Origin: an uncultured bacterium
Lineage (GTDB): Bacteria > Omnitrophota > Gorgyraeia > Zapsychrales > Aceulaceae
Direction: 5' to 3'
DNA: 64,000 nt
NCBI GenBank assembly: GCA_937930175.1
Contig: CALGLP010000004.1
Coordinates: 2,163-66,162, forward strand
Shown here: piece by piece, positions 11,515-61,433 of the stretch
Numbering within the stretch: position 1 is the first letter of the stretch
How the letters are laid out: each line of letters starts with the position of its first letter
Translations under genes and position numbers: made by a program
The notes under the pieces: model-generated
What the model saw: only the letters and a program-made list of their open reading frames with translations
Databases searched by the model: none
Told to the model about the DNA's origin: nothing

Positions 11515-12114
11515 ATGAAAAGGTTGCCGGGTCGTATTTTTGTCTTGTCAGGCCCGTCGGGTTCTGGCAAAACAACCTTGCATCACACATTGCTCCTTGA
11601 TAAAAAAATGAGATCCTGTTTGGTTAAAACGATCTCTGCAACGACGAGGAAAAAGCGCGTCGGAGAACGTCAAGGCAGAGACTATTTGTTTTTAACCAAA
11701 AAACAGTTTTTACGTCGCATCGAGACTGGATATTTCTTAGAATGGCAAAAAGTTTTTACCGATTATTATGGAACGCCTAAGGCTCAAGCAGAAAAAATAT
11801 TAAAAAAAGGTAAGAATATTTTGTTGTGTATTGATGTGCAGGGTGCGCGTATTGTGTTCAAAACGTTTAAAGATGCGGTGGGTATTTTTATTAAGGCGCC
11901 ATCGCTAGCGATCTTGAAAAAACGTCTTCAAAAGAGAGCAACAGAAACTCCCAAGGCTTTGGCGTTTAGACTTGCAGTTGCTAAGCGGGAAATGAAGGAG
12001 GTTAGGCGATATCACCATGTTGTTGTTAATGACAGCGTTTTAAGAGCAGTCCACAAACTTAAAAGAATTGTTAACCATGAACTAAAGAAGAAATTAAGAG
12101 GAGGCAAGGCATAA
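11515..12114 (+). CDS. gmk: Guanylate kinase
   Basis: I prefer the internal ATG at 11515 (MKRLPGRIFVLSGPSGSGKTTL, P-loop) over the ORF-track start at 11473, which overlaps yicC. Confidence 0.9.
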   Translation: MKRLPGRIFVLSGPSGSGKTTLHHTLLLDKKMRSCLVKTISATTRKKRVGERQGRDYLFLTKKQFLRRIETGYFLEWQKVFTDYYGTPKAQAEKILKKGKNILLCIDVQGARIVFKTFKDAVGIFIKAPSLAILKKRLQKRATETPKALAFRLAVAKREMKEVRRYHHVVVNDSVLRAVHKLKRIVNHELKKKLRGGKA

Positions 12115-12115
12115 A

Positions 12116-12385
12116 ATGAGTTATCAACCGTTAGAAAAATTATTACCAAGAGCTGGAAAAAGTATTTACCAGCTTGTTTTGCTAGCTTCCAAGCGCGCTA
12201 CAGAGCTTGCGGAAGGAATGCCAAAGCTTGTCGAGCGACCGCTCACAATTAAGACAACAACACTTGCTCTTGACGAGATTTTAGAAGGCATGGTGGTGAT
12301 GAAGGGTTACGAATCTCAGCTGCATCACAGGGAGCCTGTTACAGAAGGTGTAGAAGCGAAGGCTGATAAAAAACATAAGGAATAA
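12116..12385 (+). CDS. rpoZ: RNA polymerase omega subunit
   Basis: 89-aa ORF immediately after gmk (conserved gmk-rpoZ synteny). SIYQLVLLASKRATELAEG is typical of omega. Confidence 0.85.
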   Translation: MSYQPLEKLLPRAGKSIYQLVLLASKRATELAEGMPKLVERPLTIKTTTLALDEILEGMVVMKGYESQLHHREPVTEGVEAKADKKHKE

Positions 12386-13362: not shown

Positions 13363-13434
<72 letters not shown>

Positions 13435-13457
13435 TTAGTTTTTAAAACGAACGACAA

Positions 13458-13504
13458 AAGGTCTGCAAAACCTTTATCCGTCGGTTCGATTCCGACTCGC
13501 GCCT
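13458..13504 (+). pseudogene. Orphan 3' portion of a second tRNA-Cys (anticodon arm through acceptor 3' strand)
   Basis: AAGGT-CTGCAAA-ACCTT, TATCC, GTCGG-TTCGATT-CCGAC, TCGCGCC-T. The acceptor strand TCGCGCC is exactly complementary to the orphan 5' fragment GGCGCGA at 13066. Confidence 0.65.
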
Positions 13505-13678
13505 TAAATGTCCTCATAGCTTGTGCGACAAAACGGAGCGTAAGCTATTTGAGCGAACTTACTCCAAGCGATAGCGAGGAGTAAACGATAATCTATTTGT
13601 CTGAATTGACTCCGATGATTTCCGGAGCAAGTGATTTTAAGTGATTCCGTTAAAAGCGGAGTTCAGTATTCTTTGGGC

Positions 13679-13696
13679 GGGCAAGTGGTGGAATGG
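13679..13696 (+). pseudogene. Orphan 5' fragment of tRNA-Leu (positions 1-18)
   Basis: GGGCAAGTGGTGGAATGG is identical to the first 18 nt of the intact tRNA-Leu, which starts exactly 150 nt downstream. Confidence 0.65.
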
Positions 13697-13828
13697 TCCG
13701 ACTTCGTTCAAAAATATTCATGTTTGAACTACGTTGGACACATGGCTTTGGTGGCGCAGCGTGGCGAAGCTAAGCGCATACGTAATTTGGCAAAGACGGG
13801 CGAAAGCCCGGCGAAGTTTTACGAAGAC

Positions 13829-13911
13829 GGGCAAGTGGTGGAATGGCATACACGCAGGACTTAAAATCCTGTGGCTGAAAGGCTGTGAGGGTTCGACTCC
13901 CTCCTTGCCCA
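13829..13911 (+). tRNA. tRNA-Leu (UAA), type II
   Basis: Acceptor GGGCAAG/CTTGCCC, anticodon stem CAGGA/TCCTG with loop CTTAAAA, a long variable arm, and T arm GAGGG-TTCGACT-CCCTC. Length 83 nt, with no encoded CCA. Confidence 0.9.
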
Positions 13912-14059
13912 TAAAAATTCTGTTAGCAGAATTTTTATGGAGCAATTGAGCAATAGAGAAGCGAGCAATAGATATGCAACGGCCCAATTGCGATCAATTT
14001 TCAATTGTCGATTTTTGAAGTTTTCTTTTTTGATCTTTTAAGCTTAAATTATTTTTTGT

Positions 14060-14072
14060 GAGCTTATAGCTC
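14060..14072 (+). pseudogene. Orphan 5' fragment of tRNA-Val (positions 1-13, one mismatch)
   Basis: GAGCTTATAGCTC versus GGGCTTATAGCTC of the intact tRNA-Val 137 nt downstream. It is followed by a 64-nt two-hairpin block. Confidence 0.55.
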
Positions 14073-14196
14073 TCCGACGTTTTGATTGATAACTAGAAGT
14101 CGGAGTCCCGATCCCTGCAAAGCAGGGCGTCGGGACAGTTTTCAGCTCAAGGCGTAATGGAGATAAAGCTGTATTAGCATAGAACAAAGCAGGTGT

Positions 14197-14273
14197 GGGC
14201 TTATAGCTCAGTTGGTTAGAGCGCTTCCTTGACATGGAAGAGGTCTGAGGTTCGAGTCCTCATAGGCCCACCA
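14197..14273 (+). tRNA. tRNA-Val (GAC)
   Basis: Acceptor GGGCTTA/TAGGCCC, anticodon stem CTTCC/GGAAG with loop TTGACAT, and T arm TGAGG-TTCGAGT-CCTCA. CCA is encoded. Confidence 0.9.
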
Positions 14274-32082: not shown

Positions 32083-32156
32083 TGCCCTGTCGTCTAATGG
32101 TAGGACTCAAGATTCTGGATCTTGCTATCATGGTTCGAGTCCATGCGGGGCAGCCA
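32083..32156 (+). tRNA. tRNA-Gln (CUG)
   Basis: Acceptor TGCCCTG/CGGGGCA, anticodon stem CAAGA/TCTTG with loop TTCTGGA, and T arm CATGG-TTCGAGT-CCATG. CCA is encoded. Length 74 nt. Confidence 0.9.
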
Positions 32157-33833
32157 ACCTTGACGCTCAGGCGAACTTCGAGCGTTCGATACAGTAACAA
32201 GCGCCTTGCAGGCATCCCCTGCAGGGCGCTTGTCATTTTTAGGGGCTTTTTGGGTCTCCGGGGCGGGCAGGCTGCATGAAATGCTGTCAACGGTGGGCTG
32301 GTCTATATACATTTTGATTTCGATATAATCCTTGTAAACGACGATTTCCTTGATCATGGCTTGTATAAGGCTCTTCTGGGCTTCCGGAGGGGCCTTTTCG
32401 ATATATTGCATGGCAAACCTAAGGTTTGAGTGCAAGAATTGCCCCGAGCTTGCCGACATTTGAGCCACGTTCTTTTTAGCCTGCAGTTTTTCCAGCTCGT
32501 CTTCTAGCCTGACAATCTCCTCATCAAGCCTCGCCATCTTGTCCTTGTAAGTCTTCCCTTGCGATATCCTGTTGTCCATAGCCAGTTCAAGAAGCCTGTT
32601 CGCTTCCTGTTTGGTCTCTTCAAGTTTCTCCTGGAGAGGCTTCATCATTTTCTCAAGGGCCTCGAGTTTTATCTGGGAATCAAGGATTGCGTCTCCGATC
32701 GCCTTTACGATGATGTCCTGATCAGTAGATGCCCGCTTGAAATAATCGATAAGCGCCTCATCAAAGCCCCTGGCAGAGAACCTAGACACATCACAGCCTA
32801 ATTTCTGCTTGGACCTGCCGCATACATAATAAAAGAATTTCTCAGCTGCCTGGCCGTTGCCGCTTTCGCAGACATAGTGGCTTCCGCATTCGCCGCACTT
32901 AAGGAGCCCGGCTAAGAGGTAGATATACTCCGGGGTCTGTTTTATAAAGCGATGCCCGGGAAGTTTTGCGGTGAGGACCCGGTTTGCCTTTAACCATAAC
33001 TCTTCGTCCACAATAGCAGGATGAGTGCCTTTGTGGATCTCCTTGCCGTATTTTATATAACCCTTGTGAAATTGATTCTTTATAATCCAGGCAATGCTCT
33101 GCTTGCGCCAGACTTTACCCGTAGGAGTCTTTATGCCTCTGCGGATTAACTCCTGTCCGATATCATAAAGCGACTTGTTATTAGCGGCCATCTCCCAGAT
33201 AAAGCGCAGCTTATTTCCTGTTTCAGGATCGACAATAATTTTATGCGGCTGCCTGCCGTTTGGAAGAGGCGCGCCGTCTGGTATCAATTTATAACCGAAG
33301 GGCACGTTGCCACCAACCCACCTGCCTTGTCGCACCCTGGCAACGCAGGAGGCCTTCACGCGCTCGCCGATGAGCTCCCGCTCAAAAGCCGATAGAATAC
33401 CGAGTATGCCGATTACTACCCTGCCTATGGCAGTTGAGCTATCAAGGTTTTCGCGTACGGATACGAAAGCGATCTCTTTGGAGTTGAATAGATCAATAAG
33501 CCAGTAGAGGTCACGGGTATTGCGGGTTAAGCGGTCAAGACGGAAGAAGATTATTCCGTCAAACGCGGCAGTTTTTCTGCGCACGTGGTCAATAATCATC
33601 TGGATGCCGGGTCTGTTGAGATCCTTGCCGGAATAGCCGTCGTCTTTTACCACGCCTTTATTGCCTATATCGGCAAGCTCATGCCCGAACGCATCCAGCA
33701 GATTCCTGCAGTGGTAGGTCTGGGCATCCAGGGTAGTAAAATCTCCCTGGGCCTGGTCGTCGGTAGAGCAGCGCGTATATATAACGTAGCGTTTTTTCTT
33801 ACGGGTATTATCTGTTTTAACATTCATAGCCAT
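32094..33833 (-). CDS. Large serine recombinase (phage integrase)
   Basis: 579-aa ORF with the N-terminal resolvase domain YVIYTRCSTDDQ (catalytic Ser) and LDRLTRN, a recombinase domain, a zinc-ribbon region (CGECGSHYVCES...YYVCGR) and a coiled coil. The last ~60 codons run through the terminator and antisense to tRNA-Gln, so the true or functional 3' end is uncertain. Confidence 0.85.
   Translation of the reverse strand: MAMNVKTDNTRKKKRYVIYTRCSTDDQAQGDFTTLDAQTYHCRNLLDAFGHELADIGNKGVVKDDGYSGKDLNRPGIQMIIDHVRRKTAAFDGIIFFRLDRLTRNTRDLYWLIDLFNSKEIAFVSVRENLDSSTAIGRVVIGILGILSAFERELIGERVKASCVARVRQGRWVGGNVPFGYKLIPDGAPLPNGRQPHKIIVDPETGNKLRFIWEMAANNKSLYDIGQELIRRGIKTPTGKVWRKQSIAWIIKNQFHKGYIKYGKEIHKGTHPAIVDEELWLKANRVLTAKLPGHRFIKQTPEYIYLLAGLLKCGECGSHYVCESGNGQAAEKFFYYVCGRSKQKLGCDVSRFSARGFDEALIDYFKRASTDQDIIVKAIGDAILDSQIKLEALEKMMKPLQEKLEETKQEANRLLELAMDNRISQGKTYKDKMARLDEEIVRLEDELEKLQAKKNVAQMSASSGQFLHSNLRFAMQYIEKAPPEAQKSLIQAMIKEIVVYKDYIEIKMYIDQPTVDSISCSLPAPETQKAPKNDKRPAGDACKALVTVSNARSSPERQGWLPRMDSNHDSKIQNLESYH
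32197..32240 (+). terminator. Rho-independent terminator downstream of tRNA-Gln
   Basis: ACAAGCGCCTTGCAGG-CATCC-CCTGCAGGGCGCTTGT (16-bp stem with one G-U pair) followed by CATTTTT. It is T-rich only on the plus strand. Confidence 0.6.
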
Positions 33834-51197: not shown

Positions 51198-51601
51198 AGC
51201 AATATATCATCGACAAGTATCTTGGGTTGCCGTATCGGCACAGGGGCCGGTCTTTAGAGGGGCTTGACTGCTGGGGTTTCCTAAAGTTTGTCTATGCTGA
51301 CTTAGGCGTGAGGCTGTTTGATATTGAAGAACTGGAATACAGCAAAATCTGGGGAGCGGAGGGAAAGGATTATTTTAAAGAGCATTACTTCCATGACTGG
51401 GCAAGCGTTAAGGCGCCCGAGATGCTTGACGGAGTACTGTTTGTTAATTCAAGAAGAATTGCCAATCACGCAGGAATAATCTTAAGCAGCGGAAGATTTA
51501 TTCATTGCGCAAGGCCGGGCGTGATTATCTCAAGGATAAATGATCTCTCCTGGCAGGCAAGGATAGAGGGATTTTACAGGTTAAAAGACAAGATATGCTG
51601 A
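51101..51601 (+). CDS. NlpC/P60-family tail-associated peptidase (gpK-like)
   Basis: GLDCWGFLKFVY (catalytic Cys) ... NHAGIIL ... FIHC. The start is uncertain, because the ORF-track start overlaps the previous gene by 97 nt. Confidence 0.65.
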   Translation: MQQDKTEMQTAGQLSEIRGVSVGTGKAHLRDVEQYIIDKYLGLPYRHRGRSLEGLDCWGFLKFVYADLGVRLFDIEELEYSKIWGAEGKDYFKEHYFHDWASVKAPEMLDGVLFVNSRRIANHAGIILSSGRFIHCARPGVIISRINDLSWQARIEGFYRLKDKIC

Positions 51602-54600
51602 CTATAAGGAACATAGACAATCCGTTTAAACTGGAAGAGGCTCAGGTTAAGGAGGTCCCTTACTCCCGTCATAAGACGCTTCAGGAAGTTTTAATTGAGT
51701 CCGGGTTTGATTACGAGAATAAGCGCATTATTGTCAGCGGCAAGCGCATCGAGAATTTATCAGCATATCTTGATAATGAAGACGAGGTTACTATTATCCC
51801 GGAAGTAAAAGCGCCGGTGGTTGCGATTATCTCTGCCATAGTATCGGCAGTATGGGCCGTGGCAGTGGCGCATCCGTTCTTATTTACTTTTTTCGTGCTC
51901 TCCATGGGTTATGCCATTTATCAGCATATGAACCAGCCTAAGATGCCGGATTTTAATTTAGGCTCGGCAACCGGCATGGATGAGGGGTCGCCTACCTACG
52001 GCTGGGATGGCGTGCAGACTATCCAGGAAGTAGGAGTGCCGGTGGCAGTTGTTTACGGAGAACACAGGATCGGCGGGAATATTATCAATCAATTCCTTTG
52101 GGAGGATGGAGATAGCCATTACTTAAATGTTCTGCTTGCGCTTTGCGAAGGAGAGATTGAGTCAATCGAGAGCATTGAAATAAATAACAATCCTATTGCT
52201 AACTTCGGAGGAGTGACGGTTTCAAAACGATACGGCGCAAACTTTCAGAGTCTTGTCAGCAACTTCGAAGACCTGCACAATCTTTATCCGGTTAATGCCA
52301 ATCTGGTTAAAAACAACCCTTATGTTTACACTACCGTGGATTTAGATGTGGAAGGGTTTGAGATTCACTTAAGGCTGAATAACGGGCTTTACCAGCAGAG
52401 CCAAGGATCCGGCGATATCCAAAGTTGGAGCGTAACTTACAAGGTTGAATACAAGCTCCATTCAGAAGGCACTTATATTAATTTAGGCGAGACGACCATT
52501 TCGGAAAAATCCCGCTCCACAGTGCGCAGGGTGTTTCGCAAAGTCGGTTTAGGGCCCGGGCAATACGATATCCGGATCACCCGCACCTCAGATGACAGTT
52601 CGCTTTCACCGCTTCGGCAGGGTGATTTAACCTTATTTCAGATAGATGAGCTTAAGACTGATGATCTAAGTTATCCAAACACAGCTTTATTGGGCCTGCA
52701 GCTTTTGGCCACAGACCAGCTTAACGGCGGAACCCCGAATGTTACAGCAGTTGTAAAGGGCAAGAAAGTTTTAGTGCCGGACATAAGAAACACCGGTGTG
52801 GCGGTTAGCTGGGAAGATTATTATTGGGATGGAGGCGACTATCGTCTTTTATGTGACGATACTTTGCTTGAATGGGACGGCATAACCTATGTCCAGAAAT
52901 TCTCAGCCAATCCGGTATGGTGCCTCAGGGATTTCATTGTCAACAATCGTTATGGGCTGGGCGAGTTTATTTTAACCTCGCATCTGGATAACGCCTCGCT
53001 ATTGGAAATGTCGCAGTATTGCGAAGAGAAAGTGGCTGACGGAAAAGGCGGCTTTGAGAAACGTTTCAGGCTCGATGTCGTGATTGACTCAAATAACAAG
53101 GCGCTCGATATTCTGATTCAGCTAAGTGCTGTGTTTAACGCTATGCCATTATACAGTGCAGGCGGGATATCGTTCAAAATAGATAAGCAAACGCTGCCGA
53201 CTCAGCTTTTCGGCATGGGAAATATCGTTAAAGATAGCTTTGTGCAGAGTTGGAAGACAATCAAAGAAGTGCCGAATGTGATTGAAGTGCAGTTTACAGA
53301 TAAAGAGAAAAATTACCGCCAGGAAACCATTGCTTACATCGATGAGGATGCATTGGCTAACGGCGAGCCGATGCGCAAGAGCCAGCTTCGCTTATTTACC
53401 ACTGGCGCAAGCTATGCTATCCGCGCAGCGCGCTATGCCTTAAAGGTTGCCAAATATATTAACCGCTCAATTGTTTTTAAGGCAGGCATTGACGCAGTTG
53501 CCTGCCAGGCGGGAGATATTATTTCTCTTTCGCATGATGTGCCGCAGTGGGGATTTTCGGGCAGGGTAAAGGACGACTCCACAACGATATTAATTAAGCT
53601 GGACCGGCCTATGATTATTGAAGACGGCAAGTCTTATAAGATACAAATCAGATTCTCTGATGATTCGATTGAGGAAAAATTAATAACCTCGCCAGCCGGG
53701 ACCTATACAGAAATCGCCTGCCAGGCATTCACAAATACGCCGCAGGATTTTGATGTCTATGCCATAGGCGAAACGAATAAGGTCAAAAAAGACTTTAGAG
53801 TTGTAGCGATTCAAAGAGAAGGCAAGAACGAGGTGCAGATTCAGGCCCTGGAATATAACGAAGCGGTTTATGACGATTCTGATATTATCCTGCCGCAGAA
53901 TAACTACTCTTCTTTATCAGGAGAAATTCCGCCCGTATCAAATCTTACGTTAACCGAATCCCTGGTTAAGAAGACTGACGGCACAATTGAAAACGCGATT
54001 GATGTTTGGTTTGACCGGCCGGTGTATGTCGACCACTATGTCAAGTCCTTTGCCAAGGCAAAAATATATTTAAGCGATGACGGCGGCTTAAGCTGGGGTG
54101 CAAGAGGCGAAACAACCGGCTCATATTTCCGCATTATCGGCGATATTGTTGACCGGCACACCTATAAGGTTAAAGTCACATCGCTTACAGATATGGATGA
54201 GGAAAGCTCTCTTGTGACAGCGCCTGAATCCTCAATTACTGTTGTGGGCAAATCTGCCCCGCCAAGCGATGTTTCGACTTTCTTGGTTAACCAGAACAGG
54301 GATCAAATTTATTTCGGCTGGAGCGAGATCCCGGATGTGGACGTTTGGGGATACGAAATCAGGCGCGGAGTAGACTGGGAAAGCGGAGAGGTAATAACAT
54401 TTCAGCAGGGAACACACTATCTTACTACGGGTCTTAAGAAAGGCATTGATCAGAAATTTTGGATCAAGGCAATTGATACTTCCGGTAACTATTCTGAAAA
54501 CCCTACAGAATCAGTCCTTACTGTAGGTGAGATCCCGTTTAGGAACGTAATTGCTGAATATCAGGAGCATCCATTATGGGAAGGCGTAAAGACAAATCTT

Positions 54601-55215
54601 GAGGTCAGTTTTGAGACGCTGGTAATTTCCGACGGATTCCTTTCCGGAGAATATGATACGCCTGTCCGGGATATCGGCTATGTGGCAGCTGCCTTTATTG
54701 AGATAGAGGCAATCGTTTCTCTGTCAACAGGCAGAAGGTTTAACAGCGACCCGGACGCACGGTTTAACGACAGCCTGTCTTACCGGTTTACCGGCCAAGA
54801 GACGCAGAATGTGGCCAATTTTAAGATACGGTTGTCCGAAGACAATATCAACTGGTCCGAGTGGGCAGATTATCAGCCGGGGGATTATTATTGTCGGTAC
54901 TTTCAGCTTAAGATGATTTTAACGCGCGCAAACCTGGGTGACTATGTGACGTGCTCAACCCTGCAATATCTTGCAGACCTTCCTGATGTGGATGATTTCG
55001 GAAGCGATGCAGTAGCGGACGCAAACGAGGGGAAAGAGGTATTTTTTACCAAAACTTATCACGAGGAGCCGAATGTGCATATTGAGATAACTTCCGGAGG
55101 AGGCGTTTATACGCAGTTTGTTGATAAGTCTACGACGAGTTTTAAGGTCAAGTTATTCAATGCTCAAGGTGCCGCGCAGACAGGTACTTTTGACTGGCAT
55201 AGCCATGGAGTTTAA
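51595..55215 (+). CDS. Host specificity / central tail fibre protein, lambda gpJ-like
   Basis: 1206-aa ORF following the M/L/K-like genes, with an N-terminal TM-like stretch and a large beta-rich body. Confidence 0.8.
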   Translation: MLTIRNIDNPFKLEEAQVKEVPYSRHKTLQEVLIESGFDYENKRIIVSGKRIENLSAYLDNEDEVTIIPEVKAPVVAIISAIVSAVWAVAVAHPFLFTFFVLSMGYAIYQHMNQPKMPDFNLGSATGMDEGSPTYGWDGVQTIQEVGVPVAVVYGEHRIGGNIINQFLWEDGDSHYLNVLLALCEGEIESIESIEINNNPIANFGGVTVSKRYGANFQSLVSNFEDLHNLYPVNANLVKNNPYVYTTVDLDVEGFEIHLRLNNGLYQQSQGSGDIQSWSVTYKVEYKLHSEGTYINLGETTISEKSRSTVRRVFRKVGLGPGQYDIRITRTSDDSSLSPLRQGDLTLFQIDELKTDDLSYPNTALLGLQLLATDQLNGGTPNVTAVVKGKKVLVPDIRNTGVAVSWEDYYWDGGDYRLLCDDTLLEWDGITYVQKFSANPVWCLRDFIVNNRYGLGEFILTSHLDNASLLEMSQYCEEKVADGKGGFEKRFRLDVVIDSNNKALDILIQLSAVFNAMPLYSAGGISFKIDKQTLPTQLFGMGNIVKDSFVQSWKTIKEVPNVIEVQFTDKEKNYRQETIAYIDEDALANGEPMRKSQLRLFTTGASYAIRAARYALKVAKYINRSIVFKAGIDAVACQAGDIISLSHDVPQWGFSGRVKDDSTTILIKLDRPMIIEDGKSYKIQIRFSDDSIEEKLITSPAGTYTEIACQAFTNTPQDFDVYAIGETNKVKKDFRVVAIQREGKNEVQIQALEYNEAVYDDSDIILPQNNYSSLSGEIPPVSNLTLTESLVKKTDGTIENAIDVWFDRPVYVDHYVKSFAKAKIYLSDDGGLSWGARGETTGSYFRIIGDIVDRHTYKVKVTSLTDMDEESSLVTAPESSITVVGKSAPPSDVSTFLVNQNRDQIYFGWSEIPDVDVWGYEIRRGVDWESGEVITFQQGTHYLTTGLKKGIDQKFWIKAIDTSGNYSENPTESVLTVGEIPFRNVIAEYQEHPLWEGVKTNLEVSFETLVISDGFLSGEYDTPVRDIGYVAAAFIEIEAIVSLSTGRRFNSDPDARFNDSLSYRFTGQETQNVANFKIRLSEDNINWSEWADYQPGDYYCRYFQLKMILTRANLGDYVTCSTLQYLADLPDVDDFGSDAVADANEGKEVFFTKTYHEEPNVHIEITSGGGVYTQFVDKSTTSFKVKLFNAQGAAQTGTFDWHSHGV

Positions 55216-55217
55216 GA

Positions 55218-55433
55218 ATGGGTAAGAAACTGATACCGAGTAAAGTGATTATCGAGTTTGATAACGGCGCTTTTGTAAGCGGCGTTATTCTTTATAAAGT
55301 AAATGACAGCGGTGAAATAAGCCGGGTAAAAACAATCGGGATTAAGAATGCTGATTTCAGCAAACCGCTACTTAACGGGCTGCTACAAAAGTTTATTAAG
55401 CATGCGGAAAGCGCGGAAGGAACTCAAGAATGA
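55218..55433 (+). CDS. Hypothetical protein
   Basis: 71-aa ORF tightly packed after the gpJ-like gene. Confidence 0.3.
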   Translation: MGKKLIPSKVIIEFDNGAFVSGVILYKVNDSGEISRVKTIGIKNADFSKPLLNGLLQKFIKHAESAEGTQE

Positions 55434-55708
55434 TTTGCTCAAGATGCAAGCAAGAGATCCCCAAAGACATGGCCTATGTGCTGATAAGGGGAAGCATTAT
55501 TTTGCGTACTCCCAAAAAGCGGCCTTTAGTCTTTACCTGCATTGAGCAGGCATTTAATTACGCGCAAGCCTTATTTATGCACGATGTCTGCTGGATTGAG
55601 ACTTTGCGGGAGTACGGGTTAGAGCTTTATGACATGAATAAGGTCGCAGAACAATATAAGAATATGGAGGTGTCCGATGGCTTGGGACAAGACAAAGCCG
55701 GAAAATGA
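55430..55708 (+). CDS. Hypothetical Cys-containing protein
   Basis: 92-aa ORF with an N-terminal CSRCK motif, overlapping its neighbours. Confidence 0.3.
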   Translation: MICSRCKQEIPKDMAYVLIRGSIILRTPKKRPLVFTCIEQAFNYAQALFMHDVCWIETLREYGLELYDMNKVAEQYKNMEVSDGLGQDKAGK

Positions 55709-56249
55709 CATGCTTTTAATTAACTTCCCGGCTGCCTGCAGGGCAAACTGGGAAGCCTTAGAGTTAGGCACGGACCCGAATCTTTTAATTACGAATGCCA
55801 AGGTAGCGCCCGGGGCCGGAATTGAAGACACAAAGCTGGCACAGATAGTCACGCCGAATAAGGTGAGCGGCGCAGCTTTGACCGGCCTGGCAAGCATACC
55901 TTCTGCAGCCGGGGTCCTGCCGGAGGCGAATTCTCCTAATAAGCTGAAAGCCGATGTCAGTGATACAACGCCGGAGTATTTAGACGGGCTTATCGATACT
56001 TTGGTGTTTCAGATTTCAGGAAGCGATAAGCTGCAGCTAAAAGACGGCGGAGTCGGCACTGAAAAGCTGGAAGGAGGCGCAGCTTCTCCGGGGAATAACA
56101 AATGTTACGGAACCAATGCAGGCGGTGCCAAGGGGTTTTATGAGACTATCCCTGTTCACCTTGATTCAGTTCAAGACGGCCAGGGATTAAGATATAGCAG
56201 CGCCAATTCAAGGTTTGAGAACGCGCCGCCCAGAGCGGTATACGCATAA
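55677..56249 (+). CDS. Tail-fibre-like protein
   Basis: 190-aa ORF with the N-terminus MAWDKTKPENDMLLINFPAACRANWEAL and repeated I..(T/A)KLA....KVSGAAL-type segments, as seen in phage fibre N-termini. This is recognition only. Confidence 0.4.
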   Translation: MAWDKTKPENDMLLINFPAACRANWEALELGTDPNLLITNAKVAPGAGIEDTKLAQIVTPNKVSGAALTGLASIPSAAGVLPEANSPNKLKADVSDTTPEYLDGLIDTLVFQISGSDKLQLKDGGVGTEKLEGGAASPGNNKCYGTNAGGAKGFYETIPVHLDSVQDGQGLRYSSANSRFENAPPRAVYA

Positions 56250-56258
56250 AGGAAACAC

Positions 56259-56834
56259 ATGGGAAATTATACAAGCGGGCCCCCGAAAAGCTCCGGAGGA
56301 AATCCAGTACCTACAACATGGACGGACGATCCATTAGTTCAGGATGTTACGCCTATTAAAAAGACGCACATTGTAGAGCTACGGGCTTGTTTAGAAGCCT
56401 TAGACGGCCATTATCATGTATTCAATGGGAACAATTCAAACGCGGAAGTGCCGGATGTATCTGTGGCATGGGCAGAATCAAATGCGCAGCTTATTGTGGA
56501 TGAAACGCCGCCGAAGGCATCGCATACTAATGAGGTTATAAATTTTATCAAGGCCTTTAATGGTCACTACCATTATGTGCCAGCATACAGCATTAATTCC
56601 AACGCCTTTGCGCCCGGTTTTGCTTTTGAGGACGACCCGGTTACAGCGCTTGTTACATGGATCAAGGCATCGGCTCACGAACAATTAAGAAGCCATTTAG
56701 AAAGCTTGGCAGGGCATACGCATATAGTCTGCTGTGAATGCGAATGCACCTGCACTTGTACCTGCACGTGTACTTGTACCTGCACCTGCACCTGCCAGGA
56801 GCAGTGCTGCAGCGAATGCGATTGCGGAGATTAA
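56259..56834 (+). CDS. Fibre-module protein with three His-rich helical repeats and a 16-Cys C-terminal tail containing (Thr-Cys)x8
   Basis: 191-aa ORF ending HIVCCECECTCTCTCTCTCTCTCTCQEQCCSECDCGD. There are three copies of a ~20-residue K..H..EL(R)..LE.L.GH.H unit. Its stop lies 1 nt before the radical SAM gene ATG. Confidence 0.6.
   Translation: MGNYTSGPPKSSGGNPVPTTWTDDPLVQDVTPIKKTHIVELRACLEALDGHYHVFNGNNSNAEVPDVSVAWAESNAQLIVDETPPKASHTNEVINFIKAFNGHYHYVPAYSINSNAFAPGFAFEDDPVTALVTWIKASAHEQLRSHLESLAGHTHIVCCECECTCTCTCTCTCTCTCTCQEQCCSECDCGD
56748..56795 (+). repeat. Imperfect hexanucleotide tandem repeat (ACN-TGY)x8 encoding (Thr-Cys)x8
   Basis: acc tgc act tgt acc tgc acg tgt act tgt acc tgc acc tgc acc tgc. 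Confidence 0.9.
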
Positions 56835-56835
56835 A

Positions 56836-58122
56836 ATGAAGCCAAAATCTGCCTATATTTTTGTGACTAATAAATGCAACCTGCGCTGTAAATATTGCTA
56901 TGAAGAAAACCGCACCGGAGATATGACACCGGAAACTATGGTTGCGGCCATAGACTGGCTGGTAAGCCATTATGAAAAAGAAATGTTTGCCCGGCCTTTT
57001 GAAAGCCTGACCTTTACATTCTTTGGCGGAGAACCGCTTCTTAATTTTCCGACAGTCAGGGCTGGTATAGATTACCTGCGGGGCATATGCGATAAGCTTA
57101 ATTTTAAGGCAGGAATCCACATTTTATCAAACGGGACGGTATTTACAGATGAGATGACAGAGTATTTTAAGAACATTCGTCAATACAATAATTTCAACTG
57201 GCACTTTCAGGTGTCATTGGACGGCTGCGAGGAAACGCACAACGCTAACAGGGTATTTGCCAATGATGAGGGAAGCTATAAGGTTATTTCAGAAAACATA
57301 AAAAAGATCAGGGAAATTTTCAAAAGCGTAGGCGTGCGCATGACCGTTACGCCGGAGAATATAAAATCACTTTCAAAAGATTTTGAGGCTTTGCTTTCTT
57401 TTGGCACGCCTGTGACTAACCTTACGCCTATTGTAGAAGGCGACTGGAATGATGAGGTGATCGGCACATTCATAGATGAGCTTAAAAAATGCATTGAGCT
57501 GTATTACCGAAAAGGCCATAACCAGTATTTTAATTATCTGCACCATTCTTTGGAGAGGATAGTGGACAATTCATTTAACCGGCAGAAGGGCTGCAGGGCA
57601 GGGGAATTCTTGATAGGTATTTCAACTGAGGGCAAGATCTATCCTTGCCACAGATTTGTCGCCTATTCTAAGAAAGATGACTTTTGCCTGGGCGATGTCT
57701 GGAAAGGTATAGACGAAAACGGCGAGGCGTTTAAGAAAATAAAAGAAATGCGTCAGAGGGCAGTTAAGTGTTTAAACTGCAAGGTGTTTTCCTGTAACAG
57801 GTGTTTTGCAACAAATATGTACTTGAATCAGGATCCCGCGGCGATTCCCGACAACGGGTACTGCGAAATGAACGAAAAGATATCAAGCGCCTTGCGGCCG
57901 ATAATAAGGAGGTTGTTTGTGGAAGGAAAATTACCGCTTAAAGAAGGCGAAATGGCAGATCTAAAAGATAATGGTGTTATGTATAAGATAAGTAAAGACG
58001 AGCCTGCGGAGCTTGTAGAGGACAAGTTAGATGTAATGGCCCGCTGTATGATCCGCGTGGTGAAAGAACTGCAAGAGGTAAAGTCAGCGCTGTCTTTGCT
58101 TGCATCGAGGCATAAGGATTAA
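56836..58122 (+). CDS. Radical SAM enzyme with C-terminal SPASM-type auxiliary Fe-S domain (peptide-maturase/anSME-like)
   Basis: 428 aa from ATG 56836, with a GGAG RBS 6 nt upstream. Motifs: CNLRCKYC (CX3CX2C, 56875-56898), FFGGEPLL, and a C-terminal Cys cluster GCRAGE...YPCHRF...CLNCKVFSCNRCFATN...GYCEMN. Confidence 0.8.
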   Translation: MKPKSAYIFVTNKCNLRCKYCYEENRTGDMTPETMVAAIDWLVSHYEKEMFARPFESLTFTFFGGEPLLNFPTVRAGIDYLRGICDKLNFKAGIHILSNGTVFTDEMTEYFKNIRQYNNFNWHFQVSLDGCEETHNANRVFANDEGSYKVISENIKKIREIFKSVGVRMTVTPENIKSLSKDFEALLSFGTPVTNLTPIVEGDWNDEVIGTFIDELKKCIELYYRKGHNQYFNYLHHSLERIVDNSFNRQKGCRAGEFLIGISTEGKIYPCHRFVAYSKKDDFCLGDVWKGIDENGEAFKKIKEMRQRAVKCLNCKVFSCNRCFATNMYLNQDPAAIPDNGYCEMNEKISSALRPIIRRLFVEGKLPLKEGEMADLKDNGVMYKISKDEPAELVEDKLDVMARCMIRVVKELQEVKSALSLLASRHKD

Positions 58123-58125
58123 GCT

Positions 58126-59478
58126 ATGAAGTATTTATGCATCGTTCCATATGAATATACCACTATAACGATGATGTACCGGAATTCTCCGGTCGGCATC
58201 TATAAGGTTGCCACAAAACTGCGCAGAGAAGGCCATACTGTAGAGCTTTTTAACATGTACCCTCTTTACCGCCCGAGAAAGTTTATGGAGAATAAGCCGG
58301 GCGCGATGTATTTCAAGGGCATACCTGTATCTCAATTTATCGGTTATAAGAAGTGCGGTAATTTCGAGAACGAGAAATTATGCAGGGAGTTTCACAGGCT
58401 GGGACTGCCAATATCAGAACTTACGAAAAAGTTAGAGGAGTTTCAGCCTGACAGGATATTTGTTGGCAATACCTTTACTTTTCTCTGGAGGGCAGTTTAT
58501 GAGATCGTAGCCGAATGCAAAAAGACGATGCCTAAGGTTCCGGTAAAGGTCGGCGGGCTATATGCTATTCTTTGTCCGGATCATGCTGCAGCATCGGGTG
58601 CCGACGAAGTCATGACCCTGGAAGAAAAGACTACGAGCGATAACTTTATCAAAATAGATACGGATTTATTCGGTGATAACCTTCCAGAGAGGATATTTTT
58701 AGGGACCTCGGTAGGCTGCCCCAATCATTGCTCATATTGCGCTGTTCATATTGTAGAGGGCTGCACAAAGGTAAACACCAGCCCGGATGAAGTAGTAAGC
58801 GAGCTTAAGTATTATAAATCAATGGGAATAAGCAGGTTTATTTTTCTCGACGCCAATATCCTCTATGGATACGAGAATCATTTTAAAGTTATTCTCGATA
58901 AGGTTATCCAGGAAAACTTAAATATAGAGCTTTATTCCTACGGAGGAGTAGAGGCGCGCCTATTGACCGATGATATTGCAGAAAAGATGGTTAGTGCCGG
59001 GTTTCGTTCGGTGAATATTCCTATTGAGAGCGCAAGCGACATTATTATTAAAGAATGGAAGAGGAATTGCTTTGTTGCCGACTGGGAACAGGCGATGAAT
59101 GTTGCTAAGAGGCATTTTCAGCGTCTGCGTTCTTTCCTGATTATCGGCGCGCCGAATCAGACCGCAGAAGATATTAAGTCAACCATTGACCTGATTAAAA
59201 GCTACGGTGCAGAGGCGGTAACTCTGCCGTATACGCCGATTCCAGGTACTCCTGATTACGAGAAGTATAAGCATATCGATTTGGAGGACCTTAACCCGGC
59301 CTTTTATCCCTGCGCGCATGAGCGGATGAAAGCAGCTGATTTAGAAAAGTTTTACTCTGAAAACCGGAATGTCAGGTTTTGCTTAAGAGATTGGGATGAT
59401 GCTCAACAGAAAATACCGCCGCCCACAAAGACGATATTTGAAAGCGGACCGGCAGTAAAAACTAAAGGAGGGGATTAG
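58126..59478 (+). CDS. Radical SAM enzyme with N-terminal B12-binding-like (class B) domain
   Basis: 450-aa ORF with an N-terminal Rossmann-like segment (LCIVP...SPVGIYKVATKLRREGHTVELFNM) and a CPNHCSYC CX3CX2C motif (58717-58740). It starts 3 nt after the previous stop. Confidence 0.7.
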   Translation: MKYLCIVPYEYTTITMMYRNSPVGIYKVATKLRREGHTVELFNMYPLYRPRKFMENKPGAMYFKGIPVSQFIGYKKCGNFENEKLCREFHRLGLPISELTKKLEEFQPDRIFVGNTFTFLWRAVYEIVAECKKTMPKVPVKVGGLYAILCPDHAAASGADEVMTLEEKTTSDNFIKIDTDLFGDNLPERIFLGTSVGCPNHCSYCAVHIVEGCTKVNTSPDEVVSELKYYKSMGISRFIFLDANILYGYENHFKVILDKVIQENLNIELYSYGGVEARLLTDDIAEKMVSAGFRSVNIPIESASDIIIKEWKRNCFVADWEQAMNVAKRHFQRLRSFLIIGAPNQTAEDIKSTIDLIKSYGAEAVTLPYTPIPGTPDYEKYKHIDLEDLNPAFYPCAHERMKAADLEKFYSENRNVRFCLRDWDDAQQKIPPPTKTIFESGPAVKTKGGD

Positions 59479-59480
59479 CT

Positions 59481-59771
59481 ATGGGAAAGGTCATCAATCA
59501 CGAGGAGATAATTGTTGACGATATTGTAAAGAGCTTAACACCGTCGGTTTACGACCCGGGCAGCGGTGTGCCAGCCTCTTTTGCGCTTATTCACGCGGAA
59601 GGCGGGCCGATGAGATATTTCGTTAACGGGCAAAATCCTGCGCCGTCGTCCGGGGCACTTTTAGAGGATGGAGATATTGTAGAGCTTCCGTCAATTTATC
59701 ACATAAAGGATTTTAGGGTGGTTAAATCCGGGGATGATTCAGGAAAAATTACAGTAACTTATGAAGCATAA
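59481..59771 (+). CDS. Hypothetical small protein coupled to the radical SAM genes
   Basis: 96-aa ORF starting 2 nt after the previous stop, with a GGAGG RBS. Confidence 0.35.
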   Translation: MGKVINHEEIIVDDIVKSLTPSVYDPGSGVPASFALIHAEGGPMRYFVNGQNPAPSSGALLEDGDIVELPSIYHIKDFRVVKSGDDSGKITVTYEA

Positions 59772-59785
59772 AGGAGGCGTTAAGA

Positions 59786-60340
59786 ATGCAGCTGCATCTT
59801 AAACATCGCAAAGCAAGCAGAATAATTAAGCGGGTTACAGAAATAACTACAGATGGCGGGCTTCCAAAGACAGGCCAGACTATGATTTATCAGCCTGGAG
59901 ATGACGGGTCCTATCAGATGGGGTATCCGATAGGCGGCGTTCAAAGGTTTATTGACAACGGCGACGGAACAATAATCGATATGGCGACAGGCCTTATGTG
60001 GATAAAAGATCCTCAGGCAGCAGGTTTAAGGTCCTCTATGTATTGGTATGACGCAATCAATGCCTGCGAGAATTTGGATTATGCAGGCCACGATGATTGG
60101 CGGATGCCGAACATTAACGAGCTCTTGTCAATTGTGGATCATTCAAGGTATGATCCGGCATTCGATCTGATGTATTTTATACCATTCCCGGATACATGGA
60201 CGCCTAATTGGTCGTCAACCGTTTGTGCGCCTTGGCTGGACGGGGCCTGGTGTATGTATCCGTATGATGGTTACAAAACAGTCTGGAGCAGAATTAGTGA
60301 TATGTGTTTTGTGCGGCCTGTCAGAGGCGGTCAATCTTAA
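59786..60340 (+). CDS. DUF1566 (Lcl C-terminal domain)-like protein
   Basis: TGQT..YQPGDDG...FIDNGDGTIIDMATGLMWIKD...W.DAINACENLDYAGHDDWRMPNINELLSIVD matches the DUF1566 signature. Confidence 0.65.
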   Translation: MQLHLKHRKASRIIKRVTEITTDGGLPKTGQTMIYQPGDDGSYQMGYPIGGVQRFIDNGDGTIIDMATGLMWIKDPQAAGLRSSMYWYDAINACENLDYAGHDDWRMPNINELLSIVDHSRYDPAFDLMYFIPFPDTWTPNWSSTVCAPWLDGAWCMYPYDGYKTVWSRISDMCFVRPVRGGQS

Positions 60341-60354
60341 AAGGGGAGGCGAAA

Positions 60355-60537
60355 ATGGCAAAAGCTACAATTGAATATAAAAATGGAAAGAAAATCGTTA
60401 CCTATCCTAACGGCGAAAAGCAGGAACATTCCAAAGAAAGCCTTAAAACCGCGAAAGATATGTTTTTGCGGCATAGGCAGAAGATAGATGAGAATATCGC
60501 ATCAATCGATGACGATCTTGCAAAAATGACGGTGTAG
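60355..60537 (+). CDS. Hypothetical small protein
   Basis: 60 aa from ATG 60355, with a GGGGAGG RBS. Confidence 0.3.
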   Translation: MAKATIEYKNGKKIVTYPNGEKQEHSKESLKTAKDMFLRHRQKIDENIASIDDDLAKMTV

Positions 60538-60541
60538 TCAT

Positions 60542-60826
60542 ATGCATAATAATGGTAGCTGGACAAAATATATCACACCGGTTTTAGTGACGATTGCTAT
60601 TTTCATGCTCGGCACGATTATGGCACAGGTAAGCCGCATCGATGAGAAACTCTTTCAGCATTTGGCGAATGACCAGATACATATGCCGCGCAGTCAGTAT
60701 GTTTCAAAGGCAGAATTTGATCTGCACTGCAAATTCTTTGAAAAAGAAAACGAGCGGATCTTGAAGGCAATAGACGATTTAAGGAATGATTTAAAGGTAA
60801 GAAGCCGGGATGGAAGAAATAAGTAG
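60542..60826 (+). CDS. Single-pass membrane protein (holin/spanin-like position)
   Basis: 94-aa ORF with the TM segment ITPVLVTIAIFMLGTIMAQV followed by a coiled-coil tail. Confidence 0.35.
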   Translation: MHNNGSWTKYITPVLVTIAIFMLGTIMAQVSRIDEKLFQHLANDQIHMPRSQYVSKAEFDLHCKFFEKENERILKAIDDLRNDLKVRSRDGRNK

Positions 60827-61016
60827 AGTAAGGATTGAGTTTGACCTGCATGAGTATCGGCGGCTTGCCTTGGTTATCCGGGATCACAAAAGTCTGCTCT
60901 ATAAATTAAAAATGAACGAGCTGATCAAACAGGGCCTTATAAAAGACATGAACATTATTATAGGCATATTGGAAAGAGCCGAGGTTAAACCACAAAAGGG
61001 GGAGGTGGAAACATGA
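60810..61016 (+). CDS. Hypothetical small protein
   Basis: 68-aa ORF overlapping its neighbours. Confidence 0.3.
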   Translation: MEEISRVRIEFDLHEYRRLALVIRDHKSLLYKLKMNELIKQGLIKDMNIIIGILERAEVKPQKGEVET

Positions 61017-61123
61017 AGATGTTTATAGCTTTTACTTTGGGGAATATAGTCGGAGGCCTGGGAATGTTTTTTTATCTTTGGCTGAAAGGCAAGGTGCAGA
61101 GTGTCGGAAAGCGAAAAATTTAG
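61013..61123 (+). CDS. 36-aa hydrophobic peptide (holin-like)
   Basis: My translation gives MKMFIAFTLGNIVGGLGMFFYLWLKGKVQSVGKRKI. A GGGGGAGG RBS is present. It is below the ORF-track cutoff. Confidence 0.3.
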   Translation: MKMFIAFTLGNIVGGLGMFFYLWLKGKVQSVGKRKI

Positions 61124-61433
61124 TCTGCTTAAATTTGCCGGGAGTTTTTTTCAATTCCTGCCGTGGGTGAAGACGCTGCGTTATGCAGCCGGTATTGCGC
61201 TTGTCGGTTTTATCGGCCTGACAATTTACAGGGCATTCTTTATGCCGACGCAGACCACCAAACAGGTCACGCATATCATCGCCCAGCCTGGAGCACAGGT
61301 AACGGTGGATCAGAAGAAAGAGGAAAGGAAGCCCGGCCTTGAGGTTAGTCCTTTCGTAGAAGGCTATGGGTTCGTGGAATCCGACGAGCGCAAGGGCGCA
61401 GGCGCCAAGGCCGGGGTTAGGATTGACTTTTAA
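61101..61433 (+). CDS. Membrane-anchored hypothetical protein (last prophage ORF)
   Basis: 110-aa ORF starting at GTG, with the TM segment AAGIALVGFIGLTIYRAFF. Confidence 0.3.
   Translation: MSESEKFSLLKFAGSFFQFLPWVKTLRYAAGIALVGFIGLTIYRAFFMPTQTTKQVTHIIAQPGAQVTVDQKKEERKPGLEVSPFVEGYGFVESDERKGAGAKAGVRIDF

Follow-up and report, generated by a model that had tools for sequence, protein, structure and literature searches.

We describe here a gene cassette in the tail region of a lambda-like prophage, found in a 64,000-nucleotide (nt) stretch of DNA from an uncultured bacterium of the Omnitrophota (GenBank assembly GCA_937930175.1, contig CALGLP010000004.1, positions 2,163 to 66,162; this whole stretch is hereafter the window, and coordinates count from its first letter). 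Its central component is a protein of 191 amino acids (aa) with a cysteine-rich C-terminal tail (the Cys protein), which is encoded between a fibre-like protein and two radical S-adenosylmethionine (rSAM) enzymes. On balance, we consider it probable, by a modest measure, that the locus specifies a two-piece tail fibre, in which a PapB-like thioether synthase cross-links the Cys-tailed tip and a B12-binding-like rSAM enzyme modifies it in a second way. The chemistry, the docking of the two pieces, their incorporation into the virion and the role in adsorption are what we infer from the genes and their contexts. The genes at the centre of the argument are the following:

51595–55215, plus strand: gpJ/TipJ-like tail-tip protein, 1206 aa; conserved left flank and anchor of the adsorption apparatus
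55677–56249, plus strand: fibre-like protein, 190 aa; residues 1–156 at 55677–56144, C-terminal adaptor at 56145–56249
56259–56834, plus strand: Cys protein, 191 aa; N-domain (residues 1–157) at 56259–56729, Cys-ladder tail and stop codon at 56730–56834
56836–58122, plus strand: radical SAM/SPASM enzyme, 428 aa, PapB/ranthipeptide-maturase-like
58126–59478, plus strand: B12-binding-like radical SAM enzyme, 450 aa

The tail of the Cys protein (residues 158–191, CCECECTCTCTCTCTCTCTCTCQEQCCSECDCGD) packs 16 Cys into 34 residues, 11 of them at alternate positions: Cys occupies every odd position from 159 to 179, in register with His 153 and His 155 of the preceding domain. Within the family C159, E162 and C163 are invariant, tails of type A end in CX3D (C187 and D191 in the window), and the residue lodged between successive Cys varies (T, E, Q, D, N, H or S) with the Cys themselves fixed. 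Comparison with an 87%-identical relative revealed 17 synonymous and 0 non-synonymous codon differences in the tail, and 50 and 25, respectively, in the N-domain; on this codon evidence the tail is under strict purifying selection. Likewise, among relatives of 84–98% identity the tail is the same, apart from the number of TC units, (TC)8 versus (TC)6, and a single variant. The hypervariable character that the preliminary description of this DNA had given to the slot thus does not hold for the tail. The exceptions are small: two relatives (L016 and L020, 10001–10564; recovered contigs are labelled with L) have (TC)6 in place of (TC)8 through the loss of 12 nt in a repeat of 6-nt period, and in the variant (L017, 10001–10603) a Ser replaces one Cys, and loss of the stop codon makes the protein 9 residues longer. 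An origin of the tail as an artefact of DNA slippage was considered and rejected: Tandem Repeats Finder does report an imperfect 6-nt period, but the Cys and Thr codons are mixed and the tail is under purifying selection.

The part that precedes the tail is of a different nature. A search of 5.8 billion proteins recovered 46 homologues of the Cys protein (168–207 aa), all unnamed and without Pfam domains, and their alignment resolves the N-domain into three beta-alpha repeats of the form WTDxP..K..H..ELR, each followed by an invariant HxH motif (His 51/53, 103/105 and 153/155); the alternating-Cys tail is conserved among them as well. AlphaFold2, run with the family alignment, returned a confident model (predicted local distance difference test score, pLDDT, 86.6; predicted template modelling score 0.78), in which residues 1–160 form the three repeats as a monomeric pseudo-threefold domain and the tail is disordered. 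Foldseek comparison of this model with the PDB and BFVD gave nothing significant, a search of the PDB with the Cys-protein profile returned noise only, and the protein has no match in Pfam, PHROGs or NCBIfam, including any family of Tfa or other chaperones. A profile search of 1.84 billion representatives showed the complete architecture to be rare (16 clusters at E < 1e-30); the repeat unit itself, WTDxP..T.IKAVHIxELR, is found in 1680 representatives, of which several are long proteins with the repeat near the C-terminus. A Pfam scan of ten such long proteins detected protease domains in four and Ig, fn3, invasin or LRR domains in others, the repeat region matching no Pfam model either in them or in the window protein, and two small three-repeat homologues start with a signal-peptide-like hydrophobic N-terminus. 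These associations suggest that the repeat is an extracellular module. Irrespective of this, the N-terminal part of the Cys protein is a domain in its own right and not a leader peptide.

The enzyme encoded directly behind the Cys protein has its CX3CX2C motif (CNLRCKYC) at residues 14–21 and matches the Pfam Radical_SAM model with 53 bits (cut-off 29.5). Its match to the Pfam SPASM model (15.8 bits, E 0.017) lies below the cut-off of 21.5. The spacing of eight Cys in this region (253, 271, 284, 312, 315, 320, 323 and 343) agrees with the SPASM-like pattern CX12GX4C ... CX2CX4CX2C ... C, expected to have about 7 Cys for two auxiliary [4Fe-4S] clusters. The best NCBIfam match, top of 72 families, is PapB (NF047865; 210.7 bits versus a cut-off of 340), followed by the maturases of nif11-like peptides, CXXX-repeat targets, QhpD and SCIFF, and all SPASM enzymes of the related cassettes likewise match PapB/ranthipeptide models best. 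We therefore presume that this protein is a thioether synthase. PapB joins Cys to an Asp or Glu located C-terminal to it (PMC12373016), and the tail offers Cys followed by an acidic residue in the invariant C159-x-x-E162 and in C187-x3-D191. The preliminary description had recognized this open reading frame (ORF) but opened it at GTG 56734; the start is most likely ATG 56836, 1 nt past the stop codon of the Cys protein. The second enzyme, with its CX3CX2C motif at residues 198–205, matches Radical_SAM with 75.3 bits and, in its N-terminal part, the B12-binding model with a sub-threshold 23.6 bits (cut-off 32.1). Its NCBIfam matches, to PhpK (the best, 92.4 bits versus a cut-off of 600) and to the MCR glutamine methyltransferase, are weak, and C-methylation is our default guess for its activity. 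A homologue of it accompanies every tail of the (Cys-X)n type and is absent from the cassettes of four contigs with other contents (L028, L029, L030 and L031). The Cys tail is the presumed substrate of both enzymes.

These features recall the peptides made on ribosomes and then modified post-translationally (RiPPs), and a classical RiPP has to be weighed as an alternative: the 191-aa protein would serve as precursor and have an unusually large leader, from which the modified tail is cleaved and freed at lysis as a toxin, signal or metallophore. The enzymes are indeed of the RiPP-maturase type, with PapB, SCIFF, CXXX-repeat and CcpM models matching best; the presumed target of modification is a C-terminal peptide of predicted disorder; strict conservation is what one sees in bioactive cores; and an exporter would be needless given phage lysis. 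Against this, the supposed leader is a 157-residue fold, the repeat of which recurs in long proteins with protease, Ig, fn3 and LRR domains, and typical RiPP leader peptides are far smaller. Further, the contexts recovered revealed no gene for a protease, for an exporter or for immunity. The identity of the Cys protein as a RiPP precursor was accordingly rejected on the confidently modelled fold and on the lack of a protease or transporter gene in the contexts examined, and we regard the alternative as a whole as rather unlikely, the more so in light of the genomic evidence to which we now turn.

In all recovered contexts with downstream sequence (L001–L007, L009–L020, L023 and L024), homologues of the Cys protein lie beside rSAM genes. 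The distant ones (22–42% identity) have 2–6 adjacent rSAM genes, and the same holds for very remote variants whose Cys-rich tails are of other kinds (P0056 in L028, with six nearby, and P0075 in L029, with three). Wherever the flanks can be classified, the genes that immediately precede the distant homologues belong to the baseplate, tail tip or fibre, in siphovirus-like and myovirus-like contigs alike. In myovirus-like contigs (82–133 kilobases, kb) the cassette follows Baseplate_J or a set comprising gp25, gp6, a P2 gpI domain, gpV and PAAR; in siphovirus-like contigs it follows gpJ or a DUF2460/BR0599/NlpC tip; in others it stands behind a 1430-aa tip protein and a collagen-like protein, or behind a Collar-domain protein. 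The immediate upstream neighbour in these contexts is a Collar-domain, collagen-like or PTL_trimer protein, and in L001 a PHROG "tail protein" lies on the upstream side of the cassette and, on its downstream side, a "virion structural protein" (E 3.7e-30). In close relatives (84–98% identity) the entire block is collinear with that of the window. Such embedding in structural operons, flanked to left and right by virion genes, does not favour a freed peptide product. Some contexts carry additions: in L006 (14065–15581) a SAM methyltransferase and a GT2 glycosyltransferase lie a few genes downstream of the rSAM pair, and in L003 (10637–12138) an aldo-keto reductase and a faintly DegT-like 173-aa ORF stand between the Cys protein and the rSAM genes, which hints at further modifications, possibly with sugars. 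In addition, the rSAM gene directly behind the Cys protein is split in myovirus-like contigs by an intein with a LAGLIDADG homing endonuclease (L001 10589–12880, L002 3985–6309 and L005 2197–4488; products of 763–775 aa; Pfam Intein_splicing and LAGLIDADG_3).

Sister prophages allow the exchanged unit to be delimited. For this the genes that flank the cassette are needed:

55218–55433, plus strand: ORF of 71 aa
55430–55708, plus strand: ORF of 92 aa
59481–59771, plus strand: ORF of 96 aa, start of the conserved right flank
59786–60340, plus strand: Lcl_C/DUF1566-domain protein, 184 aa, conserved right flank
60355–61433, plus strand: four small ORFs (60, 94, 68 and 110 aa), two of them with hydrophobic N-terminal segments

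The contig L030 retains gpJ (91% identity), the 71-aa ORF (85%), the 92-aa ORF (93%), fibre residues 1–156 (88%), the 96-aa ORF (90%) and the Lcl_C protein (79%). The genes between these flanks, however, are others: one for a 245-aa protein that combines three WTD repeats with a Cys-rich tail of a different kind, one for a 127-aa protein and three for SPASM rSAM enzymes. Since both flanks are kept around a different middle, the swap unit in the window is approximately 56145–59480, comprising the C-terminus of the fibre-like protein, the Cys protein and both rSAM enzymes; the 96-aa and DUF1566 genes fall outside it. The preliminary description had asked whether the whole block of 55.2–60.3 kb swaps as one: exchange in this slot is borne out by the sister prophages, in the form of the smaller unit and not of the full block. 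In L031 the fibre homologue (P0208, 255 aa) is itself fused to a CxxxC-repeat tail, ending CSGCSWTCLSSCTGSCNSGCTGTCQGGCGGSCDGCDMG, and is followed by a 263-aa protein and two rSAM enzymes, one of which scores 148 bits on the model of the CXXX-repeat-target maturase. Here the fibre has a Cys tail of its own; thus, a gene fusion ties the fibre to the Cys tail, a linkage that speaks against a cleaved and released RiPP. The slot of L032 holds a 184-aa fibre and then proteins of 358 and 360 aa, with no rSAM gene and an M15 endolysin next. The proteins between the Cys-rich substrate and the rSAM genes in L030 (10221–10604; 127/135 aa) and L031 (9776–10567; 263 aa) have no family match and might be substrate-recognition or chaperone partners of the maturases.

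The distribution of the cassette follows the length of the fibre. Among viral contigs with the same fibre N-terminus, it is present in 19 with short "..AVYA" or fused fibres and in 0 of 24 with long fibres (212–1101 aa) or with the 358-aa and 360-aa partners. The three-repeat Cys protein is always found behind short ..AVYA fibres and never behind long ones. Such presence with a short fibre and absence with a long one again speaks against a classical RiPP. Within the unit, a breakpoint is revealed by L033, which resembles the window in gpJ (71% identity), fibre (80%) and the N-domain of the Cys protein (82%), and yet has a tail of type B (..CRCEPEM) and an rSAM enzyme 69–71% identical to the L024-type enzyme and 33–35% identical to that of the window. 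A window-like backbone combined with a type-B tail and an L024-type enzyme implies that tail and enzyme are co-inherited across a breakpoint at the junction of N-domain and tail. Judged by these sequence comparisons, then, the type of the tail segregates with that of the rSAM enzyme, and does so independently of the N-domain. The earlier proposal that the product belongs to the adsorption apparatus draws support from the compared contexts, the alternative contents of the slot, the L031 fusion, the complementarity with fibre length and the lack of any protease or exporter gene in the contexts seen, with the step of virion incorporation inferred.

The fibre-like gene, which lies ~460 nt downstream of the gpJ-like gene, encodes a mosaic protein. 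Its 111 homologues (163–333 aa) have N-terminal residues 1–156 in common and differ in their C-termini, and homologues in viral contigs range from 133 to 1101 aa. The copies in L030, L031 and L032 are 74–88% identical up to about residue 155–182 and diverge beyond. In gene position and in its mosaic C-terminus it thus behaves as a phage tail fibre would, and residues 1–156 are, by this pattern, the probable conserved, virion-proximal part. Its C-terminus (..LRYSSANSRFENAPPRAVYA) is the adaptor that marks the left boundary of the swap unit; over its final 31 residues it is 42% identical to the end of an otherwise unrelated 346-aa protein upstream in L018 and L023. More generally, unrelated upstream proteins have an end of ~30 residues (..LRY....EN..PRAVYA) in common where a related N-domain follows, and fibre ends of the "..AVYA" type occur wherever a three-repeat Cys protein comes next. 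A separate similarity connects two siphovirus lineages (L018 8950–9990 and L024 9489–9989), in which the proteins encoded upstream of the Cys protein have a common domain (..PRIDIL...G.L....G......P.P). The same domain recurs, with 38% identity over 74 residues, in the corresponding upstream region of a 133-kb myovirus-like contig (L003 8520–9353), where the protein matches PHROG 3398, "virion structural protein".

The pairing of adaptor and N-domain may be read in another way, namely that the 191-aa protein is a fibre assembly factor, a chaperone of the Tfa/gpU type that is off the virion or only transiently on it, with the rSAM enzymes modifying the fibre or the chaperone. Its gene begins 9 nt downstream of the fibre gene, and the C-terminal adaptor of the fibre co-varies with the type of N-domain, both as expected of such a factor. 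Yet it bears no likeness to any chaperone family, the Cys tail in L031 belongs to the fibre polypeptide, and the absence of the cassette where the fibre is long and self-sufficient is a better fit to a replaced distal domain. The identification of the Cys protein as a Tfa/gpU-like chaperone was thus rejected, the gene position matching without family homology, and we hold an assembly factor to be very unlikely.

A different alternative arises from the ligands themselves. The tip might be a metal or iron-sulfur structure, in which unmodified Cys and the HxH motifs bind a row of metals or clusters along the fibre axis, and the rSAM enzymes build or insert the center or act elsewhere. His 153, His 155 and Cys 159–179 all occupy odd positions and would line one face of a beta-strand; six His are invariant; CxC and CC motifs are usual metal ligands; HxH motifs bind iron in T4 gp37 and gp12; and the Cys stay constant where the residues between them change. 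What tells against it is, first, that tail type and rSAM type co-segregate across the breakpoint between N-domain and tail, which points to the tail as the substrate of the enzymes. Second, the conserved CX2E and the terminal CX3D suit thioether chemistry, and the model is a monomeric pseudo-threefold domain and not an extended trimeric needle. Third, the distant P0075 and P0108 have a Cys tail without HxH motifs, P0075 being placed among rSAM genes. We deem this alternative distinctly unlikely.

Several observations do weigh against the cross-linked two-piece fibre that we favour. The action of the enzymes on the tail, the presence of the protein in virions and its contact with the host are all predictions from the genes. 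Strict conservation of the tail is unexpected for a determinant of host range, and, CxC and HxH being classic metal ligands, the Cys might function as free thiols. No acidic acceptor is present in the central (TC)8 run; therefore, PapB-type chemistry alone cannot account for it. The 428-aa enzyme is without an N-terminal peptide-recognition (RRE) domain, as the rSAM motif begins already at residue 14, and both enzymes score under every curated NCBIfam family cut-off. The fibre-like protein has no match in Pfam, PHROG, NCBIfam or the PDB (a PDB sequence search returned noise only, with a pectate lyase at E > 0.1), and its AlphaFold2 monomer is mostly coil (pLDDT 57.6); because this confidence is low, the label "fibre-like" derives from position and mosaic architecture only. 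Finally, among the 50,697 deposited phage genomes of INPHARED neither the Cys protein (tblastn) nor the consensus three-repeat sequence finds a relative, and tblastn matches to both rSAM enzymes lie below 30% identity; without a deposited phage relative there is no cultured system at hand.

Weighing these points together, we advance the following mechanism for the two-piece fibre. The 190-aa protein would attach to the gpJ tail tip via its conserved N-terminal part, and its last ~30 residues (..PRAVYA) would dock the 191-aa tip protein, the N-domain of which probably holds a metal by its three HxH motifs. Prior to assembly, in the anoxic cytoplasm of the host, both enzymes would work on the tail. 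The PapB-like enzyme could link the Cys sulfur by thioether bonds to carbon atoms in the side chains of nearby Glu, Asp or Thr, the candidate sites being C159-x-x-E162, C187-x3-D191 and the (Thr-Cys)8 run; the B12-like enzyme would make a second modification, probably C-methylation. The distal end of the fibre might then carry a cross-linked peptide that is rigid, insensitive to redox conditions and resistant to proteases, and that would substitute for the folded C-terminal receptor-binding domain of the related longer fibres.

Viewed against characterized systems, the cassette combines features of several. As in the ranthipeptide systems (PapA/PapB of freyrasin; SCIFF/CteB) and in QhpC/QhpD, an rSAM/SPASM enzyme is encoded beside a Cys-rich substrate, and QhpD offers a precedent for the cross-linking of a whole protein subunit instead of a peptide. 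It departs from them in its sub-cut-off scores, in an enzyme without an N-terminal recognition domain and in having no protease or exporter; in a 191-aa substrate of which 157 residues fold as a domain and which has a (Cys-X)n ladder in place of spaced CX3D repeats; and in the location of the genes in a phage tail-fibre module, where they swap along with the fibre C-terminus. With the PapB systems it has in common substrate Cys that are followed by Glu or Asp (CX2E, CX3D; PMC12373016). The two-gene fibres (lambda stf/tfa, and fibre plus Tfa of Mu and P2) present a similar arrangement of a short proximal fibre with conserved N-terminus, a separate partner and exchange as a cassette; unlike them, the partner here has a fold unmatched in the PDB and BFVD, a Cys-ladder tail and two co-inherited radical SAM enzymes. 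To our knowledge, no characterized fibre module is co-inherited with radical SAM enzymes. The threefold, invariant HxH near the presumed distal end of the fibre is reminiscent of T4 gp37/gp12 and phage spike tips, in which case the differences are that all three motifs lie in one chain of a globular pseudo-threefold domain, not in a trimeric beta-helix, and that metal binding here is predicted. The 450-aa enzyme has the layout of class B rSAM methyltransferases (PoyB/C, Mmp10 and the MCR glutamine C-methyltransferase), with an N-terminal B12-like domain followed by a CX3CX2C rSAM core, but its B12 domain is below the Pfam threshold and its family scores are far under the cut-offs. No paper linking rSAM maturases to phage fibres was found in open-access full texts and bioRxiv preprints. 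In sum, a known chemistry would here be placed in a new biological role and architecture.

Turning to the organization of the operon, all the ORFs of the preliminary description were recovered on the plus strand, at the coordinates it gave, and tightly packed. From the gpJ-like gene onward the intergene gaps are 2, -4, -32, 9, 1, 3, 2, 14, ~14, 4 and -17 nt, the last small ORF being preceded by a gap of 84 nt; between the gpJ and DUF1566 genes the spacing thus runs from -32 to +14 nt. The fibre-like gene overlaps the 92-aa ORF by 32 nt and has a GGAGG Shine-Dalgarno sequence. Consensus scans, which are weak evidence in Omnitrophota, revealed nothing in the gaps between the cassette genes that resembles a strong promoter or terminator, and its GC content (0.42–0.47) resembles that of the rest of the prophage. 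We hence rejected a moron, i.e., an independently expressed cassette of lysogenic conversion, on the grounds of gaps of no more than 14 nt, the lack of a strong internal promoter-like or terminator-like site in these scans, an ordinary GC content and a location in the tail operon. That the cassette sits in the receptor-recognition slot and not in a moron slot, as was first suggested, is upheld by the tail-module context of its homologues and by the alternative contents of the slot in sister prophages.

The left flank consists of conserved tail genes. Tape measure, tail tube and gpM-, gpL- and gpK-like (NlpC/P60) genes lie upstream of the gpJ-like gene, the product of which scores 133.6 bits on an NCBIfam TipJ-related subfamily model, slightly below the cut-off of 140, and 134.9 bits on the lambda TipJ model, far under the cut-off of that model; it is 68–98% identical across sister prophages. 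The 71-aa and 92-aa ORFs, without family matches in Pfam and PHROG, are 51–96% identical in all sister prophages regardless of the cassette behind them. On the right, the original DUF1566/Lcl assignment is confirmed, with residues 61–180 matching Pfam PF07603 at 89.2 bits versus a cut-off of 34.9 (also phrog_16004); a tblastn search of INPHARED with this protein gave no match. The 96-aa ORF has no match in Pfam, PHROG or NCBIfam and is 52% identical in L018. Membership of the DUF1566 and 96-aa genes in the cassette was rejected, as they are kept in L030 beside a different rSAM cassette. The 96-aa, Lcl_C and small, partly hydrophobic ORFs always occur together (L030, L018). The Lcl_C/DUF1566 gene is absent from L031 and L032, and both it and the 96-aa gene are absent from the myovirus contexts. 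In L032 a Peptidase_M15_4 gene (11729–12130) stands in the place of the two. The four small ORFs, the first of which begins behind the DUF1566 gene at ATG 60355, may be a lysis module; no recognizable endolysin was seen in the tail/lysis region at 48–64 kb, the region of 34–48 kb having been only sampled.

The prophage as a whole spans ~29 kb and lies within the window, its left bound being marked by a recombinase gene beside a tRNA gene:

32083–32156: tRNA-Gln, adjoining the serine recombinase
32094–33833, minus strand: large serine recombinase, 579 aa, left bound of the prophage

Downstream of the recombinase follow the terminase gpA, a lambda-type portal, the tail tube, the tape measure and homologues of gpM, gpL, gpK and gpJ. 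The right end falls at approximately 61414–61433, where the 86% nucleotide identity to the LiM prophage of Ca. Velamenicoccus archaeovorus (Omnitrophota) stops, the homology ending at 61414; beyond it lie a TetR gene and then a TolC-like gene. The LiM prophage encodes a Cys protein 94% identical to that of the window. A comparison of 31.5–34.5 kb with 61.3–61.7 kb yielded no convincing attL/attR repeat, the longest common word being 11 nt. As to the host, it is related to Ca. Velamenicoccus archaeovorus; three tRNA genes (Cys-GCA, Leu-TAA and Val-GAC) cluster at 13363–14273 in the host part of the window, and the GC content of the window goes down to 0.29 at 4–5 kb and at 7–8 kb.

A 2026 paper states that phage associations were so far unreported for Omnitrophota (PMC13452462); the present analysis documents a prophage family in this phylum.

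The rSAM/SPASM peptide maturases characterized so far serve secreted natural products and the maturation of a few enzymes, and characterized phage fibres depend for their folding on chaperones and metal ions. If the proposed function is true, an rSAM-matured fibre tip would bring a new post-translational chemistry to virion assembly. It could also be one reason for the orphan rSAM genes in viral contigs from anoxic habitats, which are often read as metabolic genes. The use of thioethers instead of disulfides would have a ready rationale in particles that have to survive reducing, sulfidic water. The compact enzyme-substrate pairs, a 34-residue tail and two enzymes, may also be of use to peptide-stapling biotechnology. 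More broadly, and tentatively, with the odds in our estimation somewhat against it, phages of anaerobes may carry a whole class of virion-built, RiPP-like receptor-recognition tips: Cys-rich tails, borne by fibre-tip proteins or by the fibre, which dedicated rSAM maturases would cross-link into redox-proof stand-ins for binding domains that are folded or held by disulfides. Their "tip plus maturase" cassettes would be exchanged between siphoviruses and myoviruses as modules of host range or stability, and radical SAM peptide-maturation chemistry would here, for the first time, serve to build a virus particle.

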